Source: a virus. Taken from it: a stretch of DNA of 64,000 bases. This document shows, one piece after another, positions 49,019 to 57,733 of this stretch; position 1 is the stretch's first letter; each line of letters opens with the position of its first letter. The DNA lies in IMG/VR virus record IMGVR_UViG_3300032144_000003, positions 1-64,000 of that record. One strand, 5' to 3'. The notes beneath the pieces are model-generated. The model saw only the letters and a program-made list of their open reading frames with translations, had not been told where the DNA came from and searched no databases. The position numbers were made by a program, and so were the translations under genes.

Positions 49019-49579
49019 GCCCGCCGGTGCCAGAAACCGGCCACGTGCCTGCCCGTGTCACGAGAGAAGACGGCCACTCATCTGAGAGACAGGCAAAAAT
49101 CCCCCTGTGTGAGGTGAGCAGGAATCGAGCGACCGAAGCCCAATGGCAGGGCGGGCAGTCCTGAAGGGTCATCCGCAGTCGGCACGCTGGTCGTCGCCGT
49201 GCCATCCAACGGGAGACTGAGATGTAGACCTGACGAGAGTGTGAAGGAATGAGACCGGACTACAGCAGGGATAGACCTGCCGTGGGGAACCCGCAAGAAA
49301 GTTCCACGTAAAAGCACCGTTGCGGGCTGGCGGATGATGAATCCGCCAGAACATGGATCGGCGGCGTGGACAAGTGACACGCAGGCAACTGTCCTCGGCT
49401 CACACTGGGGGCAGCTACTTGAGGCGGCGAGCCGGGAGTGATGGGCGTTCAGGAGCAGTGCTCGACACTGACGAAGAACCCGATAACCGGGCCGAAATAA
49501 TTCACCGCGAATGACCTCAGCAGGTGCAAGTCCTGTCCGATCCACTGGACGTCAACAACCCCCAACAAGGAGTCAAAGC
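49019..49579 (+). ncRNA. long non-coding gap with multiple stable hairpins (candidate structured RNA or cis element)
   Basis: No + strand ORF of 60 aa or more. The - strand ORFs are Arg/Ser/Leu-rich shadow ORFs. Hairpins at 49023-41, 49181-203 and 49327-49 (9-bp stem). Confidence 0.3.
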
Positions 49580-51787
49580 ATGGCCACTGAAATCGCACAA
49601 CCTGGCACTGAACGTCGCCCGCAAGCCAATCTCCCGTCCATTCGCCCGGAACGTCTTCCATACCACCCTGCATTGCAGGAGAAGTTCAACATCGGGAGAT
49701 CAGAATGGCGGGCATTGGTCGAGGCCGTATTTCCTCTGGCACAGTCTATCGATTCGGTGATCCTGGCACTGTCGTACTGCAAGGCCCGCCGGTTGGACCC
49801 TTTCAAGCGAGTCGTGCACATCGTGCCGATCTGGGATTCCAAGCAGCGGTGCACTGTGGACACGATCTGGCCTGGCATCGGAGAACTGAGAACGACTGCC
49901 ATGCGGACGAAAGAGTACGCCGGACGCGACAAAACGGAGTTCGGTCCGGATGTCACGCGGCGGGTCGGCACGCTGGAAATCACATTTCCTGAGTGGGCAC
50001 AGGTCACGGTGTATCGGATGGTGAACGGGCAGCGAGTGGCGTTCGCTGGTCCGCAGGTGTACTGGCTGGAGACGTACGCAGAGCGGGGCGGCAAAGACCA
50101 CGACAGGACTCCCAACAGCATGTGGGCGAAGCGAACGCGGGGGCAACTCGACAAATGCTTTGATGAGCACACCGAGGTACTAACAACCGAAGGATTCCAG
50201 AGATTTTCGGAAGTGACCGGACTGATTATGCAGGTCACGGACCACGGCCTAGAGCCAACCAACGCCGTTCCGTTCGCTCGCGAATACGACGGCCCGATGG
50301 TGACATGCGACGGAAACGTGCTGAACTTCAGTGTCACGCCGAATCACGACATGGTCACCACGAATGGAAAGGTAGAGGCGGCAGAAGTTGTCGCCAAAAG
50401 CACAAGCACCGGGGGATTCGATATCCCGCTGGTAATTGATGGGTCTGGCCCGGACGCCAACTTTACTGACAGGCAGATCATGGTGGCCGCAGCACTCGCC
50501 TGCGATGGGTATCGACATGGAGGTGAACTGTGCATTGCCGTCAGCAGGAAGCGGAAGGTTCAATTCCTTCGGCAGATTGGAATGCACAAGTCAATGCACG
50601 TGCGGCAGTGTGCTGGGGAGGACACAGTCTCGTCATCAGGGCGGGTCATCACAACGACGGCCAATAAGATGGTGTTCGGCTACCGCAGGGACGTTGCTGG
50701 TGATTTATTGATTGAAGGAACGAAGCTGCTCGACAGCGCGCAGGTGGTTCGCCTGAGCAGACGACAGGCAAGGCTGCTTGTTGATTCAATGCTCCAGTGT
50801 GATGGGCACGAATCCCGAACGGCCAGACGATTCTTTGCCTCGTCGCGGTCGATCCTGGCCGCCTTCGAGGTTGCAGCCTGCGTTGCGGGGTACGCGATCA
50901 GTTACCGACGAGTACGGAAATCTGACATTGGCGGCAAGAACTACTACGTGACGGTGAGCACAAAGACGACGGCCCGTACCATGAGAGCAAGTCGTAGCCA
51001 ATCCAGGCTGAAAGGTGGTCTACGGCACACGCTCAATGAGTCAGGCATTGTCTGGTGCTGCACGGTGCCGACTGGACAAATCGTCGTGCGACGTAAAGGG
51101 CTGTCGATGATCTGCGGCAATTGCGCCGAGGCCGCCGCCCTGCGAGCGGCTTTCCCAGAAGAGATCGGAAACGAGTACATCGCAGAAGAGGCGCATGCGC
51201 CGTCCGGATCAGAGGCGAGACAGGTACAGTCCATCGTCAAGGTGTCCGGAGCATCGGCCACGGAGAACCTTGCACAAATGATGCAGGGTGAAGCCAGAGA
51301 AGAGTCCCAGGTTGACCAAGAGGCAGTAGGACCGCATGATCCGGATGTCAACGCCGACGAACCCCTCGAATCCGCCGACGTTCTGGAGATCATCAGCGAC
51401 CCGCCCGCGGACCAGACGCAGTCCAGCCAGCCTCAAACGGACGAACCAGCGGCGGAAACGAAGCCCGCCCGCAAGCCCGCCAAGCAGCAGAAAACACTGA
51501 CGGATGCGCCGCCGCAAACGCAGTCCGCCAGTCCGCCACCTGTCGATCCCCGCGAATGGGCGAAGTACGGCAGTGTCGGAACGGACAACCCGCAGCGGTA
51601 CTGCAACCGAATCAAGATTGCCGTCGGCAAAGCCAAGACTGCCGAGCATCTGGCAATTCTCAACGAGGCGCTGAACACCGCCTGTCAGGTCGGAGATGTG
51701 ACGGCGGAGCACGCGGACCCCGTGTACGCCGCCATCGACGCCGCCCATGCTGGTCTGGAAATGGAATCGTCCCAGGCCGCGTCCTGA
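49580..51787 (+). CDS. recT: RecT-family single-strand annealing protein interrupted by an intein
   Basis: AAGGAG precedes ATG 49580. RecT-like CKARRLDPFKRVVHIVPIWD ... NSMWAKRTRGQLDK / CAEAAALRAAFPEE flanks a 322-aa insert. Confidence 0.8.
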   Translation: MATEIAQPGTERRPQANLPSIRPERLPYHPALQEKFNIGRSEWRALVEAVFPLAQSIDSVILALSYCKARRLDPFKRVVHIVPIWDSKQRCTVDTIWPGIGELRTTAMRTKEYAGRDKTEFGPDVTRRVGTLEITFPEWAQVTVYRMVNGQRVAFAGPQVYWLETYAERGGKDHDRTPNSMWAKRTRGQLDKCFDEHTEVLTTEGFQRFSEVTGLIMQVTDHGLEPTNAVPFAREYDGPMVTCDGNVLNFSVTPNHDMVTTNGKVEAAEVVAKSTSTGGFDIPLVIDGSGPDANFTDRQIMVAAALACDGYRHGGELCIAVSRKRKVQFLRQIGMHKSMHVRQCAGEDTVSSSGRVITTTANKMVFGYRRDVAGDLLIEGTKLLDSAQVVRLSRRQARLLVDSMLQCDGHESRTARRFFASSRSILAAFEVAACVAGYAISYRRVRKSDIGGKNYYVTVSTKTTARTMRASRSQSRLKGGLRHTLNESGIVWCCTVPTGQIVVRRKGLSMICGNCAEAAALRAAFPEEIGNEYIAEEAHAPSGSEARQVQSIVKVSGASATENLAQMMQGEAREESQVDQEAVGPHDPDVNADEPLESADVLEIISDPPADQTQSSQPQTDEPAAETKPARKPAKQQKTLTDAPPQTQSASPPPVDPREWAKYGSVGTDNPQRYCNRIKIAVGKAKTAEHLAILNEALNTACQVGDVTAEHADPVYAAIDAAHAGLEMESSQAAS
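50156..51121 (+). mobile_element. intein with LAGLIDADG-type homing endonuclease domain
   Basis: Block A CFDEHTEVLTTEG, block B VTPNHDMVT, two LAGLIDADG-like motifs (IMVAAALACDGY; LLVDSMLQCDGH), blocks F/G VWCCTVPTGQIVVRRKGLSMICGN followed by +1 Cys. Confidence 0.75.
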
Positions 51788-51835
51788 AAAATCTGAAAAC
51801 TCTGTGATCCACCGATTAGAACCGAGCGTTCTATT
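51785..51835 (+). promoter_or_regulatory. conserved promoter-like element, copy C
   Basis: TGAAAAATCTGAAAACTCTG TGATCC(51805-10) N16 CGTTCTATT(51827-35), 58 nt upstream of ATG 51893. Confidence 0.5.
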
Positions 51836-51892
51836 CGCAGCCACGGGGACTCGCCCCGGACAACAACCGCGACACCAGCAAGGGTTACCACA

Positions 51893-53215
51893 ATGACAGC
51901 AGCGACAGCGACTCCCAAGACCGCCCCCAAGGCCAATCACCTCAAGTCTGCCGAGGTCCACAACTTCAAGGGGCTGCATCAGGCCAAGGTGACGTTTCCT
52001 GGCAGCGGGGTGATCATCATTGGCGGTCGCAATGGCAGCGGCAAGACGTCGTTCACGGATGCCATCTGGGCCGCGTTGGGAGGTGCATCCGCACTGGACG
52101 ACGTGCCGGTGATGCAGGGGCAGGAAGAGGCGACGATCCGGCTGGAGATTGATACCGATCCCCCGTTGATTGTGGAGCGGACGATCAAGTCCTCCGGCGG
52201 TTCCCCAGCGCTCAAGGTCTACACGGAGATGCCTGGCCCGACGGGCAAGCCGATCAAGTCTAACCTGTCCGGTCCGCAGTCCGTGCTCAATACGCTGGTG
52301 GGCAAGGTCGCGTTCGACCCACTGGAGTTCATCCGCCTCAAGCCCGCCGATCAGGTCAAGCTGCTGGCGGAACTGGTGGGGGTCGATGTGTCGAGGCTGG
52401 ACGGCGAGATTGCCGCTCTGATGCAGGAACGCCAGTCGGTCAAGAAAGAGCGGGACAAGCTGTCCGCCGTGGTCGAGGGGATGCCGCACCATACCGACGC
52501 CCCATCAGAGATCGTCAGTACCGAGGCACTCGTCAAGGAACTGTCCCATGCGGAAGCGGCGAACACCAAGCGGGCGCAGTTGGAACACCGCGCCAAAGAG
52601 CAGACGACGCAGAAAGCGAGTCTGGAGAAGCGGGAGCAGGAACTGCTGGCACAACTGGAGAAAGTGCGGTTCGATATTCAGGCGGCGGCGCAGGCCGTAA
52701 CGGAATTCTCAGCGCAGGCGGAACAATCTCCGGTCATCGACGTGGAGCCGATCAAGCAACGGATCAGCATGGCGTCCAGCATCAACCGCAAGGTGGAGGA
52801 CAACCGGCAGCGGGCCACGTCGCAACAGGCACTGGAGAACAAGGACACGGAAGTCACGGTGTTGACCAACGAGATCGAAGCCAAGCGCCAGGCCCGGCTC
52901 AAGATGATGGAGGAAGCGGAGTGGCCTGTGCCGGGGCTGGGGTTCAGCGACGCGGGCGTGACGTACAACGATCTGCCGATCGGCCAGATTTGCAGCGCCG
53001 AGAAGATCAAAGTGTCCACCGCCATCGGGCTGGGACAGAATCCGCAACTCAAGCTGATGTTCATCCACGATGGATCGCTGCTGGACGATGAGGGTCTGGC
53101 GATCATCGAGGAACTGGCGGTCGCGCACGATGCCCAGGTGTTCGTGGAGCGAGTCGGGACCGGTGACGAAGGGGCGATCATCATCGAGGAAGGGTACGTC
53201 AGGCAGGCGGTGTGA
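51893..53215 (+). CDS. SMC/SbcC/RecF-like AAA ATPase
   Basis: VHNFKGLHQAKVTFPGSGVIIIGGRNGSGKTS (Walker A), a central coiled coil, and C-terminal KLMFIHDGSLLDDEG (Walker B). Confidence 0.7.
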   Translation: MTAATATPKTAPKANHLKSAEVHNFKGLHQAKVTFPGSGVIIIGGRNGSGKTSFTDAIWAALGGASALDDVPVMQGQEEATIRLEIDTDPPLIVERTIKSSGGSPALKVYTEMPGPTGKPIKSNLSGPQSVLNTLVGKVAFDPLEFIRLKPADQVKLLAELVGVDVSRLDGEIAALMQERQSVKKERDKLSAVVEGMPHHTDAPSEIVSTEALVKELSHAEAANTKRAQLEHRAKEQTTQKASLEKREQELLAQLEKVRFDIQAAAQAVTEFSAQAEQSPVIDVEPIKQRISMASSINRKVEDNRQRATSQQALENKDTEVTVLTNEIEAKRQARLKMMEEAEWPVPGLGFSDAGVTYNDLPIGQICSAEKIKVSTAIGLGQNPQLKLMFIHDGSLLDDEGLAIIEELAVAHDAQVFVERVGTGDEGAIIIEEGYVRQAV

Positions 53216-53476
53216 TGCGAATCAATGAACACAATGAATTCATCGGGGTGCTTGCAGCCCCATGAGAGGCGAGAAGTGGCGACCAGCACGAACGAGAACA
53301 GGTGCGACAACGGGTGAACACACGCCCGCTCCGGAATGGGCAACCAGACCGGCCCCTGCGTTCAGCGACGCGCAAACACTCGCAGAAGGCTCCCGAAACG
53401 ATGGCCCGGATATGCAGTGAGCCTGGGCCGCACACGCTTTTTCACTTTTGGTTCTGTTCACTTAGGAGAATGACTG
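53216..53476 (+). other. 260-bp non-coding region upstream of the CRISPR module
   Basis: It contains GCGACAACGGGTGAAC (53304-19), identical to the start of the terminal repeat of array 2, and GCCGCACACGCTTTTTC (53427-43), partly complementary to the repeat 3' handles. Confidence 0.4.
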
Positions 53477-54073
53477 ATGGTCACGAGCAAGGAGAAGATG
53501 GTGGGACTCAAGCAGTTGTCGAAGGACGGGAACAGCAACGTGTTCCGCCGGGTGCAACTGGCGGCAGAGATTCTGGCGGACAGGGAGTTCGTCTCGTCGG
53601 AGTGGGGGGATGAGTTCCGGGCGTGGTCGGCGATGGAGGATGAGTGTTTCTCGATGCTCAAAGGACTCATGCCGTTCGCCCGGTTGCTCCAGATTCACCA
53701 GCGGTTTCCGACGGAGCGGCATTGGCTGGAGTACAACTACAACCTGGCCGTGATGGACGACCTGTGCTGTCAGGCGGAAGCGGAAGAGCGCGCCAAGGCC
53801 GGTGAGGTCCAACCTGTGGCGACGCGCCGCCGGGCGACGCTGGAACAGGTCGAGAAGCTGGAGGCGGAGAACCAGGCACTGGCGGTGCAGGTGCAGGAAC
53901 TCAGGCAGAAGGTCACGCCGGACGATCTCGACCGGGTCGAGGTGCTGGAGCAGGAGAACGCCCGGCTGCATCAGGAGCTTGGAAAACTGCGTCAGGAGAA
54001 CCTGGAACTGCGCCGTCAGGTTCAGAAACTCCGCGTGGGATCGTCGCGAACTCCGGAGCCTGTCGCGTGTTAG
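53477..54073 (+). CDS. coiled-coil protein directly upstream of CRISPR array 1
   Basis: AGGAGA lies 7 nt upstream. It has an N-terminal ~100-aa domain and a Leu-zipper-like C-terminal half (LEQVEKLEAENQALAVQVQELRQK...). The stop is 10 nt before the first repeat. Confidence 0.45.
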   Translation: MVTSKEKMVGLKQLSKDGNSNVFRRVQLAAEILADREFVSSEWGDEFRAWSAMEDECFSMLKGLMPFARLLQIHQRFPTERHWLEYNYNLAVMDDLCCQAEAEERAKAGEVQPVATRRRATLEQVEKLEAENQALAVQVQELRQKVTPDDLDRVEVLEQENARLHQELGKLRQENLELRRQVQKLRVGSSRTPEPVAC

Positions 54074-54082
54074 GTTCGTGGA

Positions 54083-54313
54083 GTTGTAAGGCCACCGGAA
54101 ATGAAGTGTGTGCGCAAGTGGTCGAGTCCCTCGTCCGTCGACTTGCGGTTGTAAGGCCACCGGAAATGAAGTGTGTGCGCAAGGCTCGAATTCTTCCGTG
54201 GTGATGGCCCGGCGCTGTAAGGCCACCGGAAATGAAGTGTGTGCGCAAGTTCACAGGGCCATGCAACTGGCCAATATGGGGTGTAACAGACCGTGAAGCG
54301 AAGTGTGTGCAAG
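54083..54313 (+). CRISPR. mini-CRISPR array 1 (3 repeats + degenerate terminal repeat, 3 spacers)
   Basis: 36-nt repeats at 54083-118, 54148-183 and 54214-249 (GTTGTAAGGCCACCGGAAATGAAGTGTGTGCGCAAG). Degenerate copy at 54280-313. Unique spacers of 29/30/30 nt. Confidence 0.8.
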
Positions 54314-54326
54314 AAAGGTCAAAAGA

Positions 54327-55637
54327 ATGCCCAAAGCAGTGATCGAAATTAAGCTCGGTGCGTGCCTCACCAGCCGCACGGAAGCGTTTCATCGTGAACT
54401 GATGAAACTCGCCGTCGGATGTCGGCAGATTCGTAACGGGGCGATGTCGGCCTGGCTGCAATGGATCGACGCCAATCCAGACTATCAGCCACAACAACGC
54501 AAGGACCGCAATGGGAAACTCAAGGTCACAAAAGATGGCACGCCAATTATGGAGTCGGCGTGGCTCCCGCAGCACGTCCAGAAGCTGCTGTATGATTCCG
54601 GACGCAAGGCGAACATCGCCGTTAGTTCCCACGTCGCATCACACTGTGTGAATGCGGTGATGCAGTATCTCGCCGGAGACCTGCCGTACAACCAGATCGA
54701 ACGCGGCGCGCCACGCTGCAAGGTCTGGCAGGCCATCCGTGACAGGCACATCAACGCCCCGTCCTACAGTGCGCTGGTGATCCCCGTCCCCAAGGCCAAT
54801 AGCGACCTGTGTTACAACGGCCAGACGACGAGCCGCAACGCCCTGCTGAAAGAGTGTGGGAAATCGTCGGCTGTGGTTTCCATTCCAATGTGGTCGCGCG
54901 AGGCGGGCCGGGAGAAGACAACCGCTATCTGCCGGATCGAGACGCGGCAACTCTCGCGCGGCAACCGGCAACTGCTGCAACGCATCGCACGCGACAAGGA
55001 CATGCACAGGGACAGCCAGATTGTCCTCAAGGATGGCCGCTGGCAGTTCCAACTCACGTATCAGGTGGAGCAGGAACTCTACCAGTTCGATCCGGCGCGG
55101 CAGGCCCGGCTGGTGATCTGCGACGGCACATCCGGCACGCCGTTCCGCCTGGAACTGCCCGGTGTCCCCGACTGGTCGATCTGTCGTGAGGAATCCAAGT
55201 TGCTGGTCAATGAACTGGCCCGCCTCGAAACCCGCCGCAAGACGATTGGCAAGTTCTACCGTGAGGGTCGCGGCCACGGTCACGGACGGCGGAAGGCGAT
55301 GGCCAACGCGAAGCGGATTGGAGCGCACGAAACCGGCCTGCGGCTCAACTTCATGCGGAAGACGATTGCGGAAGTGGTCAAGGCCGTGACCCGCTTCGAG
55401 TGCGGCACGCTGATTGTCGAGTCACCGAATCTGTTCGTGAAGAACTGCCGGAACAGGCCCACGTGGTTCAGCGACCGGGGTGTCACGTTCGCCTGGCATC
55501 AGGTGGTCAACACGTTGGGGCAGAAGTTGCCGGGCGTGCAGGTCGATCAACTCAGAATAGGGAAGGAAGAATGGCTCGGTTCAATTGCGAATGCGGAAAC
55601 TGCAAACGCCCCATGCGAGTCAGCAAGTCCCGCCTGA
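54327..55637 (+). CDS. TnpB/Cas12f-like RuvC-domain CRISPR effector candidate (N-terminal ~420 aa of the fold)
   Basis: SD AAAGG lies 8 nt upstream. TnpB-like order of elements: IVLKDGRWQFQLTYQVE, LVICDGTSG (RuvC-I Asp), RRKTIGKF...RRKAMANAKR, NFMRKTIAEVVKAVTRFECGTLIVESPNL (RuvC-II Glu). Flanked by arrays on both sides. Confidence 0.6.
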   Translation: MPKAVIEIKLGACLTSRTEAFHRELMKLAVGCRQIRNGAMSAWLQWIDANPDYQPQQRKDRNGKLKVTKDGTPIMESAWLPQHVQKLLYDSGRKANIAVSSHVASHCVNAVMQYLAGDLPYNQIERGAPRCKVWQAIRDRHINAPSYSALVIPVPKANSDLCYNGQTTSRNALLKECGKSSAVVSIPMWSREAGREKTTAICRIETRQLSRGNRQLLQRIARDKDMHRDSQIVLKDGRWQFQLTYQVEQELYQFDPARQARLVICDGTSGTPFRLELPGVPDWSICREESKLLVNELARLETRRKTIGKFYREGRGHGHGRRKAMANAKRIGAHETGLRLNFMRKTIAEVVKAVTRFECGTLIVESPNLFVKNCRNRPTWFSDRGVTFAWHQVVNTLGQKLPGVQVDQLRIGKEEWLGSIANAETANAPCESASPA

Positions 55638-55909
55638 AGGTGATTGCACGGGACAGGATCGTGCCGTTGTGCGAGACGTGCCGTCCATTCCGGAGCTACT
55701 TGATTGGACTCACAGAAGTCGAGCGGTTGCAGGCTGCAACATTGGCCGGGACCGATCGCAGAAAGGAAGAGGTGACATGTCAGGGACTTACGAACGACGG
55801 GTTGATACGGGATAGGGCGAAAGGTGGCCAGCATTCCGGACCTCTCGCAGGCGGACGCCTAACGTGTGTGACAGACAGGCGATGCATTGCGGGCGGTGAC
55901 AATACCTGA
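55571..55909 (+). CDS. zinc-ribbon module (TnpB/Cas12 C-terminal-like) in the -1 frame relative to the effector ORF
   Basis: GGAAGGAAG precedes ATG 55571. MARFNCECGNCKRPMRVSKSRLKVIARDRIVPLCETC. It overlaps the effector ORF end by 67 nt and runs into the first repeat of array 2. Confidence 0.45.
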   Translation: MARFNCECGNCKRPMRVSKSRLKVIARDRIVPLCETCRPFRSYLIGLTEVERLQAATLAGTDRRKEEVTCQGLTNDGLIRDRAKGGQHSGPLAGGRLTCVTDRRCIAGGDNT

Positions 55910-56145
55910 GAAAGCGAAGTGTGTGTGCAAGTTGATGCCTATTATCGCCGCCGGGGAATACCGGCGTGTGACAATACCTGAGAAAGCGAAGTGTGTGTGC
56001 AAGTTGATCTGGTTGTTCGCATCAATGCGGCCTCGGGTGGTGACAATACCTGAGAAAGCGAAGTGTGTGTGCAAGATCACCGCCGAACCCAACGGCACCC
56101 CGGATAGGTTGCGACAACGGGTGAACGAAAGAAAGTGTGTGCAAC
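55896..56145 (+). CRISPR. mini-CRISPR array 2 (3 identical repeats + degenerate terminal repeat, 3 spacers)
   Basis: 36-nt repeats at 55896-931, 55968-56003 and 56040-075 (GTGACAATACCTGAGAAAGCGAAGTGTGTGTGCAAG). Degenerate copy at 56111-145. Unique spacers of 36/36/35 nt. Confidence 0.8.
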
Positions 56146-56495
56146 GCTGGCTATACCACCAACTGACCGCCCTCGCGACAGCCATCGCCGTCGTGGCGTA
56201 CCTGTCGCTGCGGTTCATTCGCCGGGAACTGCTCCGACTGGAGCGGGACAGCCAGCACCGGCAAGAACAACTGGACGAGGCGCAGCGACGCATGAGCGAC
56301 CCTGAACAACGCGACACGATCCCCTGCGAACCGGGTGAGGTCTGCTGCATGTGCAAGGCTCCCGCCACCAAGATCACCTATTCCAAACACCACACGGACG
56401 TCCGGATCAAGTTCGTCATGCTCTGCGACGCCTGCGCCCGCGAAGCAGACGAGATGCATCTGGCGTATTTTGAGCACCAACCCCCAACGGAGTGA
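56139..56495 (+). CDS. small TM + zinc-ribbon protein downstream of array 2
   Basis: GTG 56139 (or 56121). TM LTALATAIAVVAYLSL. CCMCK...CDAC. The upstream part of the track ORF is array-encoded and is not counted. Confidence 0.35.
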   Translation: MQRWLYHQLTALATAIAVVAYLSLRFIRRELLRLERDSQHRQEQLDEAQRRMSDPEQRDTIPCEPGEVCCMCKAPATKITYSKHHTDVRIKFVMLCDACAREADEMHLAYFEHQPPTE

Positions 56496-57175: not shown

Positions 57176-57733
57176 ATGGAATCGACCATGCTGTTCATCG
57201 GCATCGACCCCGGCAAGACGGGCGGCATTGCGGTCATTGATTACGAATCAGTGATCGTGGCCGTGCTGCATTCCGAGAAGGCGACCGAGCGTGACATGTT
57301 CGCGTTCTTCGACGACCTCGATGAACGGTTCGGCACCGTGCCGCGACGGGCTGTGATTGAGCAGGTCGCATCGTCTCCGCAGATGGGAGTTGTGTCGGCG
57401 TTCGCGTTTGGGCAGTCGTTCGGCTTCCTGCGCGGGCTGCTGACAGGGACAGAGACACCATTCGAACTGGCGAGACCTCAAAAATGGCAAAAGGCAATGG
57501 GCTGCCTAAGCAAGGGTGACAAGAACGTGACGAAGGCAGCGGCACAGCGACTGTGGCCACAGTGGAAGATCACACACGCCAATGCGGACGCGTTATTGAT
57601 TGCGGAGTTTTGCCGTCGCCAGTGGTGGAATTCGGCCACATTCGAGAAATGGATTGCCGCCGGAGACGAGCAGCCGCACGCCGTCGTGACCATCACTCCC
57701 CTGTCCATCAACTCCGGAGCTTCCTCCCCATGA
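57176..57733 (+). CDS. ruvC: RuvC-like Holliday junction resolvase
   Basis: MLFIGIDPGKTGGIAVID ... VIEQV ... HANADALLIAEF. Confidence 0.75.
   Translation: MESTMLFIGIDPGKTGGIAVIDYESVIVAVLHSEKATERDMFAFFDDLDERFGTVPRRAVIEQVASSPQMGVVSAFAFGQSFGFLRGLLTGTETPFELARPQKWQKAMGCLSKGDKNVTKAAAQRLWPQWKITHANADALLIAEFCRRQWWNSATFEKWIAAGDEQPHAVVTITPLSINSGASSP

Follow-up and report, generated by a model that had tools for sequence, protein, structure and literature searches.

A phage-borne family of Cas12f-like effectors, predicted to be nuclease-dead, and a zinc-ribbon and tail protein encoded in an overlapping frame

The locus described here lies within a 64,000-nucleotide stretch of viral DNA (positions 1 to 64,000 of IMG/VR virus record IMGVR_UViG_3300032144_000003), which is called the window below. 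It comprises, in order, an RNA that resembles a trans-activating CRISPR RNA (tracrRNA), a gene for a leucine-zipper protein, a first mini CRISPR array, a gene for an effector resembling nuclease-dead Cas12f (dCas12f), a small open reading frame (ORF) called ORF2, and a second mini array. The effector gene (54327..55637, plus strand) encodes a 436-residue Cas12f-like protein that lacks a zinc ribbon and a RuvC-III motif and is predicted to be nuclease-dead, as judged from its AlphaFold (AF2) model, Foldseek and profile searches, PADLOC, and residue conservation in its family. Its ORF has potential starts at GTG 54303 and ATG 54327, ends with the residues ...PGVQVDQLRIGKEEWLGSIANAETANAPCESASPA, and stops at 55635-55637, which is 26 residues past the strand PGVQVDQL.

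ORF2 (55571..55909, plus strand), recognized from its sequence and its homologues, encodes 112 residues in the -1 frame and overlaps the last 67 nucleotides of the effector gene. The -1 frame is open over 55400-55909. The ATG at 55571-55573 is one base past a Shine-Dalgarno (SD)-like sequence, GGAAGGAAG (55561..55569, plus strand), and is embedded in a conserved Trp codon of the effector (A-TGG); the stop codon is at 55907-55909. The protein begins MARFNCECGNCKRPMRVSKSRLKVIARDRIVPLCETC and consists of an N-terminal zinc ribbon with ligands C8/C11...C34/C37 followed by a disordered tail. In its AlphaFold model, residues 1-40 form a beta-hairpin and a helix that carry the four Cys residues (predicted local distance difference test score, pLDDT, 71-79), and residues 41-112 are disordered. 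A preliminary description of this DNA, made from the letters alone, had placed the end of the main frame at 55637 and a CxxC...CxxC protein at ATG 55571, and the sequence confirms both. It took the arrangement to be a split effector, and proposed that the locus encodes a natural two-polypeptide effector, depends on noncanonical recoding, or reflects a pseudogene or a sequencing error.

Searches with the single effector sequence were uninformative, so profile and structure searches were needed. The sequence gave nothing significant against Pfam, NCBIfam, or PDB sequences and no match in IMG/VR, and a peptide-pattern scan of GTDB genomes revealed no relatives. In the GenBank phage collection, neither the effector nor ORF2 had a match. 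Sequence searching yielded seven effector homologues that are 28-35% identical, and a profile of these seven detected 792 metagenomic representatives of clusters built at 50% identity (E<=1e-3), of which 158 reach E<=1e-30. Nearly all of the best 150 listed are 370-585 residues long. The AlphaFold model of the effector (pLDDT 80) has a Cas12f/TnpB-like fold with a WED-REC-RuvC core. AsCas12f is its best Foldseek match (E 2e-16, template modeling score 0.54-0.60), and the natural dCas12f 9n9c is matched at E 1e-10. PADLOC assigns the effector to Cas12u3 (1.5e-6) and Cas12f (2e-5), with a match that ends near profile position 305 of 398. Because the Foldseek matches, the similarity of the family profile to Cas12f among PDB sequences, and the early end of the PADLOC match agree, the effector is Cas12f-derived and lacks the C-terminal quarter. 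The relationship to TnpB and Cas12f suggested earlier is thus upheld.

Conservation in the family was counted in an alignment of 140 effector representatives. Past the strand equivalent to GVQVDQL, the proteins continue for a median of 20.5 residues, and none runs on in frame into a ribbon. Neither a Cx(1-4)C knuckle nor a D.NA[AGS] motif follows the last strand in any representative (0/140 for each). In the window, 0-frame residues E415 and W416 agree with the family consensus (E in 83 representatives, W or Y in 51), and therefore the 0 frame is right up to the ATG of ORF2. Because the representatives all end at the same place without a ribbon or RuvC-III, the effector ORF is judged to be full length and not accidentally truncated. 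The idea of a split effector therefore stands in part: comparative data favor two polypeptides, but the effector is not a truncated one whose remainder lies in another frame.

The same alignment bears on catalysis. No conserved acid is found at the RuvC-I position, and the RuvC-II position is an Arg in 80 representatives, inside the motif Y-R-E-P. Acidic columns conserved across the family are few (window positions 141, 229, 349, 366, and 415), and the window protein itself has H141 and S366. The family thus lacks the RuvC D-E-D catalytic triad, and it has no TNB zinc ribbon in the same chain, since the ribbon sits only on the separate ORF2. Residues D266 and E365 of the window effector are near the old RuvC-I and RuvC-II positions but are not conserved, and the third Asp is absent. 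The effector family is best read as naturally nuclease-dead, which agrees with the earlier suggestion of an impaired, binding-only effector, because the RuvC acids are not conserved.

Relatives of ORF2 occur in three other loci. One phage of 37.7 kb, for which there are four assemblies, each from another sample (L009-L011 and L019), encodes an effector that in L009 is 34% identical to that of the window and is overlapped by a -1-frame ORF with ATG 5281, whose product is MGSRRRKSKLTLPCRVCGEP. In BLASTP, this product and the ORF2 of the window are 27% identical over 99 residues (E 5e-7). An ORF2 profile search also detected P0009 (1.6e-25) and P0010 (1e-14), and the corresponding contigs L012 and L013 carry ORF2 directly 3' of the effector gene, as in the window. 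A further large protein search that used the tail alignment returned P0010 alone. Each of the four copies has a start codon and an SD-like sequence, the latter being GGAAGGAAG in the window, AGGAA in L009, AAGGAGGAA in L012, and AAGGAGG in L013. In three of the four, the ATG falls within the homologous Trp codon and opens the -1 frame; the L013 copy starts with GTG in the +1 frame.

These data bear on the possibility that a frameshift pseudogene, or an assembly or sequencing error, has split a continuous Cas12f gene. The ribbon is at the place where the TNB would come after the last RuvC strand, which is an argument from position only. However, an independent Logan assembly of run SRR9694932 (L007, 1704 nucleotides) is identical to window positions 54221-55924 and thus reproduces the number of bases at the junction. 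Moreover, the split recurs in three other loci that are 25-35% identical, one of them recovered from four samples, no aligned family member continues in frame into a ribbon, and the 0 frame follows the consensus as far as the ATG. This explanation can therefore essentially be dismissed. Of the checks proposed in the preliminary description, the independent count of the bases agrees with the window, and the examination of homologous loci shows that L009, L012, and L013 retain the split together with the start codon and the SD.

Programmed -1 frameshifting, or some other form of recoding, would instead fuse the effector to the ORF2 frame and produce a longer isoform with the ribbon and the tail. 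The same -1 relation in three loci, with overlaps of 31-67 nucleotides, could be taken to favor this, as could the in-frame tail fusions of relatives that are described below and, in L009, a run of five A residues (GAAAAAG) that shortly precedes the stop of the 0 frame. However, a scripted scan of the 0 frame over 55380-55640 found no X_XXY_YYZ heptamer, as had been stated before for 55540-55575, and no such heptamer was found in L009 or L012. None of the copies lacks a start codon and SD of its own, and the L013 ORF, which begins with GTG behind a strong SD, lies in the +1 frame. Common descent accounts for the -1 relation that the others share, since their ATG is embedded in a conserved Trp codon. 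Frameshift genes of the dnaX or IS3 type are recognized by a slippery heptamer and by a conserved frame without an independent start, and the locus has neither. Recoding is accordingly highly improbable.

The tail of ORF2, although disordered, has a conserved motif, ER.G...PG.AR..Q...G.G..GHQxAPLAxGRV. The window copy reads GGQHSGPLAGGRL, compared with the family consensus G.G..GHQxAPLAxGRV. In the effector representatives P0025, P0045, P0052, P0056, P0101, P0112, and P0117, this tail is fused in frame at the C-terminus, without the zinc ribbon. A hidden Markov model (HMM) built from the four ORF2 tails only matches the C-termini of eight effector representatives with E values from 1e-15 to 3.5e-7, and a ninth bears the motif as well, so that about nine 50%-identity representatives have it in all. 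P0065 and P0122 are likewise counted among the fused-tail relatives. The tail is therefore a module tied to the effector, fused to it in some members and carried on a separate chain in others. No other observation argues as strongly for ORF2 being part of the effector complex as a subunit.

The link between ORF2 and the effector thus appears to be the tail motif and not the ribbon, which the preliminary description had regarded as the C-terminal module of the effector. Pfam searches with ORF2 and with hypothetical frameshift fusions gave no TnpB, Cas12f_TNB, or PF07282 match, and Foldseek with the ORF2 model returned generic zinc fingers only (E>1), with no relation to TNB. The proposal that the ribbon is a split-off Cas12f TNB rests on position only. 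The absence of a RuvC-III motif, noted before, holds both past the ribbon in the window and in the family tails. The sequence LTNDGLIRDRAKG, formerly named as the closest match to RuvC-III, is rejected, since neither the stretch of disordered tail in which it falls nor its Asp residues are conserved.

The substitution pattern of ORF2 is that of a gene. Among L009, L012, and L013, the ratio of nonsynonymous to synonymous substitution rates (dN/dS) is 0.36-0.49, and of the 15 sites that vary within a conserved motif of 17 codons, 12 are third positions. This variation is a signature expected of a protein-coding sequence and not of an RNA or DNA element. An opposing view is that the conserved downstream stretch is a nucleic-acid element, such as an array leader or an RNA, or else an unrelated small gene, and that ORF2 is no partner of the effector. 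Consistent with this view, the motif is at a fixed distance of ~36-60 nucleotides upstream of the first repeat, the ORF enters the repeat in all loci, and the ribbon lacks detectable similarity to the Cas12f TNB. However, variation in the motif follows a three-base period, dN/dS is <0.5, and about nine 50%-identity representatives carry this peptide as an in-frame fusion to the effector, which makes this view quite improbable. ORF2 is real as a family, because there are positional homologues, an own start and SD, the dN/dS values, and the shared tail.

The two mini arrays flank the effector gene and ORF2. The upstream array (54083..54313, plus strand) has three 36-nucleotide repeats (GTTGTAAGGCCACCGGAAATGAAGTGTGTGCGCAAG), spacers of 29-30 nucleotides, and a degenerate fourth repeat. 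The downstream array (55896..56145, plus strand) has three 36-nucleotide repeats (GTGACAATACCTGAGAAAGCGAAGTGTGTGTGCAAG), 36-nucleotide spacers, and a degenerate terminal repeat at 56111-56145. Both have the 3' handle GAAGTGTGTGyGCAAG in common and differ in the 5' halves of their repeats. In L002, L004, and L005, the 5' halves differ even inside one array. With the exception of the short contig L008, all homologous loci that were inspected have arrays whose repeats end in a similarly conserved, purine-rich 3' stretch, which resembles that of the Cas14a repeat (...GAAUGAAGGAAUGCAAC).

In all four loci with ORF2, the first repeat of the downstream array encodes the last codons of ORF2 and its stop (55896-55909 in the window, 5596-5613 in L009, ~1213-1230 in L012, and ~1007-1024 in L013), and no untranslated leader separates ORF2 from the array. 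The degenerate last repeat of the upstream array ends 13 nucleotides before the effector start in the window (54280-54326) and 4 nucleotides before it in L004 (1190-1231). A CRISPR RNA (crRNA)-like transcript of this last unit would have the ribosome binding site and start codon of the effector as its "spacer". The arrangement could serve autoregulation, or it may merely reflect co-transcription.

The tracrRNA-like RNA is a structured element of ~210 nucleotides (53241..53452, plus strand) that was defined by covariance model R1 and covariation. Its features are a hairpin at the 5' end, a GCGAG/CUCGC stem formed over a long range, and, toward the 3' end, an anti-repeat at ~53427-53440, CGCACACGCTT, which is complementary to the conserved repeat end AAGTGTGTGCG. 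The element adjoins the effector family in six loci, with model scores of 226 bits in the window, 182 in L004, 169 in L009, 69 in L018, 59 in L001, and 50 in L002; the L018 locus is a remnant. Compensatory changes occur in 15 pairs, none of 500 shuffles matched the observed values, and slid controls scored far lower. In L009 and L004, the anti-repeats are at the homologous 3' position. Rfam contains no family for this RNA. Two further loci suggested by pattern scans of DNA for tracrRNA-like sequences, L017 and L020, were rejected as chance matches by the covariance model. The RNA at 53241-53452 is a tracrRNA candidate, and the locus thus presents both adjacent arrays and a conserved structured RNA with an anti-repeat.

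A 16-mer, GCGACAACGGGTGAAC, occurs within the tracrRNA-like RNA at 53304-53319 and again at 56111-56126, where it makes up the 5' half of the degenerate repeat that closes the downstream array. By chance, 0.01 such matches are expected. Because the 16-mer occurs in both places, it suggests that the tracrRNA-like RNA is partly derived from a repeat. The spacers have no convincing self-match inside the window. The best one pairs the first 16 nucleotides of downstream spacer 2 (D2; 56004-56019) with effector antisense positions 54685-54700 at 14 of 16 positions, and is probably due to chance (~0.2 such matches are expected over all spacers).

Taken together, we think it likely that the locus encodes a phage-borne, Cas12f-derived (type V-F-like) system that has lost its nuclease activity and that ORF2 is a partner gene translated separately. 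ORF2 would be translated from its own SD and ATG. Because this ATG is embedded in the Trp codon of the effector, its position suggests translational coupling. The product would be a small subunit with a zinc ribbon and a disordered tail bearing G.G..GHQxAPLA. Since the tail is covalently fused to the effector in some relatives, ORF2 most likely binds the effector noncovalently at split loci and supplies the same tail. The effector, loaded with a crRNA:tracrRNA pair, would bind complementary DNA without cutting it. The bound effector might block transcription or replication at the target site, or else the ORF2 tail, the leucine-zipper protein, or both might recruit another factor to the target.

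Several observations weigh against this reading. Because the window effector keeps D266 and E365, some residual or rearranged catalysis is conceivable. No protospacer was found for any spacer tried, so DNA targeting is something that we infer; viral contigs contain no exact match for the merged D1/D2 pattern, U1[1-20], or U3[1-20]. ORF2 is absent from five related loci (L001, L002, L004, L005, and L008), and is therefore accessory and not essential to the family. In addition, the window ORF2 is the most divergent copy: its dN/dS relative to the others is ~0.8-1.0 with dS saturated, its tail reaches only 15 bits when scored with an HMM made from the tails of the other three, and its G+C content at third codon positions (GC3) is 0.62, compared with 0.67-0.82 in neighboring genes. 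For these reasons, the window copy could be under relaxed constraint.

Carried further, the same facts would make the ORF2 family real but the window copy a decaying remnant under relaxed selection, with an effector that works without it. The degenerate motif of this copy (GGQHSGPLAGG, compared with GHQHAPLANG) and the many family loci that have no ORF2 are consistent with such decay. However, the copy is open over 112 codons and retains its four zinc ligands, start, SD, PLA core, and GR, its stop is located in the first repeat as at other loci, and the saturation of dS makes its dN/dS unreliable. We regard decay as unlikely and a functional partner gene as the preferred interpretation.

The gene that lies between the tracrRNA-like RNA and the upstream array (53477..54073, plus strand) encodes a 198-residue accessory protein whose N-terminal domain is novel and whose C-terminus is a leucine-zipper-like coiled coil. 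Pfam gave sub-threshold matches to coiled-coil and bZIP families only. Homologues of ~200 residues are found beside the effector in L009 (3426-4001), L001 (5249-5914), L005 (423-1010), and L002 (7667-8281), and also in L018, where the leucine-zipper or coiled-coil gene is truncated. The locus as a whole is embedded in a phage recombination module (49511-53215 and 57176-57733) that encodes a RecT-type annealing protein fusion of 758 residues, an SbcC-like AAA ATPase of 440 residues, and a RuvC-like Holliday junction resolvase. No match to sigma factors or helix-turn-helix (HTH) proteins was found among the neighboring genes.

A small ORF just 3' of the downstream array (~56196-56495, plus strand) encodes a hydrophobic N-terminal helix and a C-terminal CxxC...CxxC (...CCMCKAPATK...MLCDACAREADE), and PADLOC matches it weakly to HEC-09 (E 0.014). 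In L001, a canonical IS605-type TnpB gene (1260-2564; HTH_OrfB, OrfB_IS605, and Cas12f1-like_TNB) shares a 126-kb contig with the dCas12f-like gene and lies ~3.4 kb upstream of it.

A more specific proposal is that the ORF2 subunit, or its fused equivalent, acts as an adaptor, in which the GHQxAPLA tail, possibly together with the leucine-zipper protein, recruits a host or phage machine. Candidates for the recruited machine are RNA polymerase, a nuclease, or the neighboring recombination proteins, and the sites would be set by the crRNAs of the phage. We offer this role tentatively, as a possibility that is less probable than not.

Natural nuclease-dead Cas12f and TnpB proteins act as RNA-guided repressors, as TldR does, or as activators, as in dCas12f-sigmaE. 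The Cas12f/Cas14 (type V-F) nucleases are the best structural and sequence match to the family described here, and share with it repeats of 36-37 nucleotides and dependence on, or the apparent presence of, a tracrRNA. Unlike them, the effector has no D-E-D triad, TNB zinc ribbon, or RuvC-III helix motif. In dCas12f-sigmaE (PDB 9n9c/9n9m), a dead Cas12f scaffold acts via a partner that is docked by a C-terminal extension. The structural match to it (E 1e-10) and the C-terminal truncation that removes part of RuvC are points in common. However, the locus has no operonic rpoE gene (an extracytoplasmic function sigma factor with a C-terminal domain) and no HTH partner, it has arrays and a tracrRNA-like RNA where dCas12f-sigmaE has single long guide RNAs, and the family profile matches 9n9c more weakly (E 1e-5) than it matches active Cas12f (E 1e-14).

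Cas12m, Cas12c, Cas12k, and TldR are natural RNA-guided DNA binders that do not cleave their targets, but they belong to other Cas12 or TnpB lineages, and a tail subunit that has split off is found in none of them. Cas12k acts together with Tn7 genes. TldR is also encoded by phages, but relies on one omega-RNA-like guide adjacent to the gene (at its 3' end) and is linked to fliC or oppF; at the present locus the guides would come from CRISPR-type arrays and a separate tracrRNA-like RNA, and neither fliC nor oppF is a neighbor.

A CRISPR-associated cluster of nuclease-dead Cas12f proteins (Hoffmann et al., Nature 2026, PMC13472631, Extended Data Fig. 1a,b) and inactivated Cas12f branches (Altae-Tran et al., PNAS 2023, PMC10691335) have been described. 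Like the proteins described here, these have a Cas12f-like fold, a C-terminal truncation that removes RuvC-III, nearby CRISPR arrays, and a structured guide-scaffold RNA, and they are predicted to be binding-only, repressor-like proteins. The published examples are chromosomal, and include one from a metagenome-assembled genome of Chitinophagaceae with a guide that matches an efflux promoter (PMC13472631; PMC10691335). The present family differs from them in its location on phage contigs, its leucine-zipper neighbor, and, in a subset, the zinc-ribbon and tail subunit. Literature searches yielded no account of a family carried by phages in which such an effector is paired with a leucine-zipper protein and with a tail subunit, whether split off or fused.

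The observations have a practical consequence for annotation, in that out-of-frame ORFs overlapping the 3' ends of cas12f-like genes should not be automatically "repaired" as frameshifts. At ~430 residues plus a short peptide module, the effector could be a very compact platform for programmable DNA binding. The tail subunit, which is found both fused and separate, is a natural experiment that points to a functional docking peptide. More broadly, the locus suggests a further large, phage-borne branch of dead Cas12f, with 158 clusters (50% identity, E<=1e-30) and accessory proteins of its own, and it raises the question of how a phage benefits from CRISPR guides that do not lead to cleavage. 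If the adaptor role is true, this branch would represent a new natural mode of RNA-guided recruitment by phage, parallel to dCas12f-sigmaE and independent of it.

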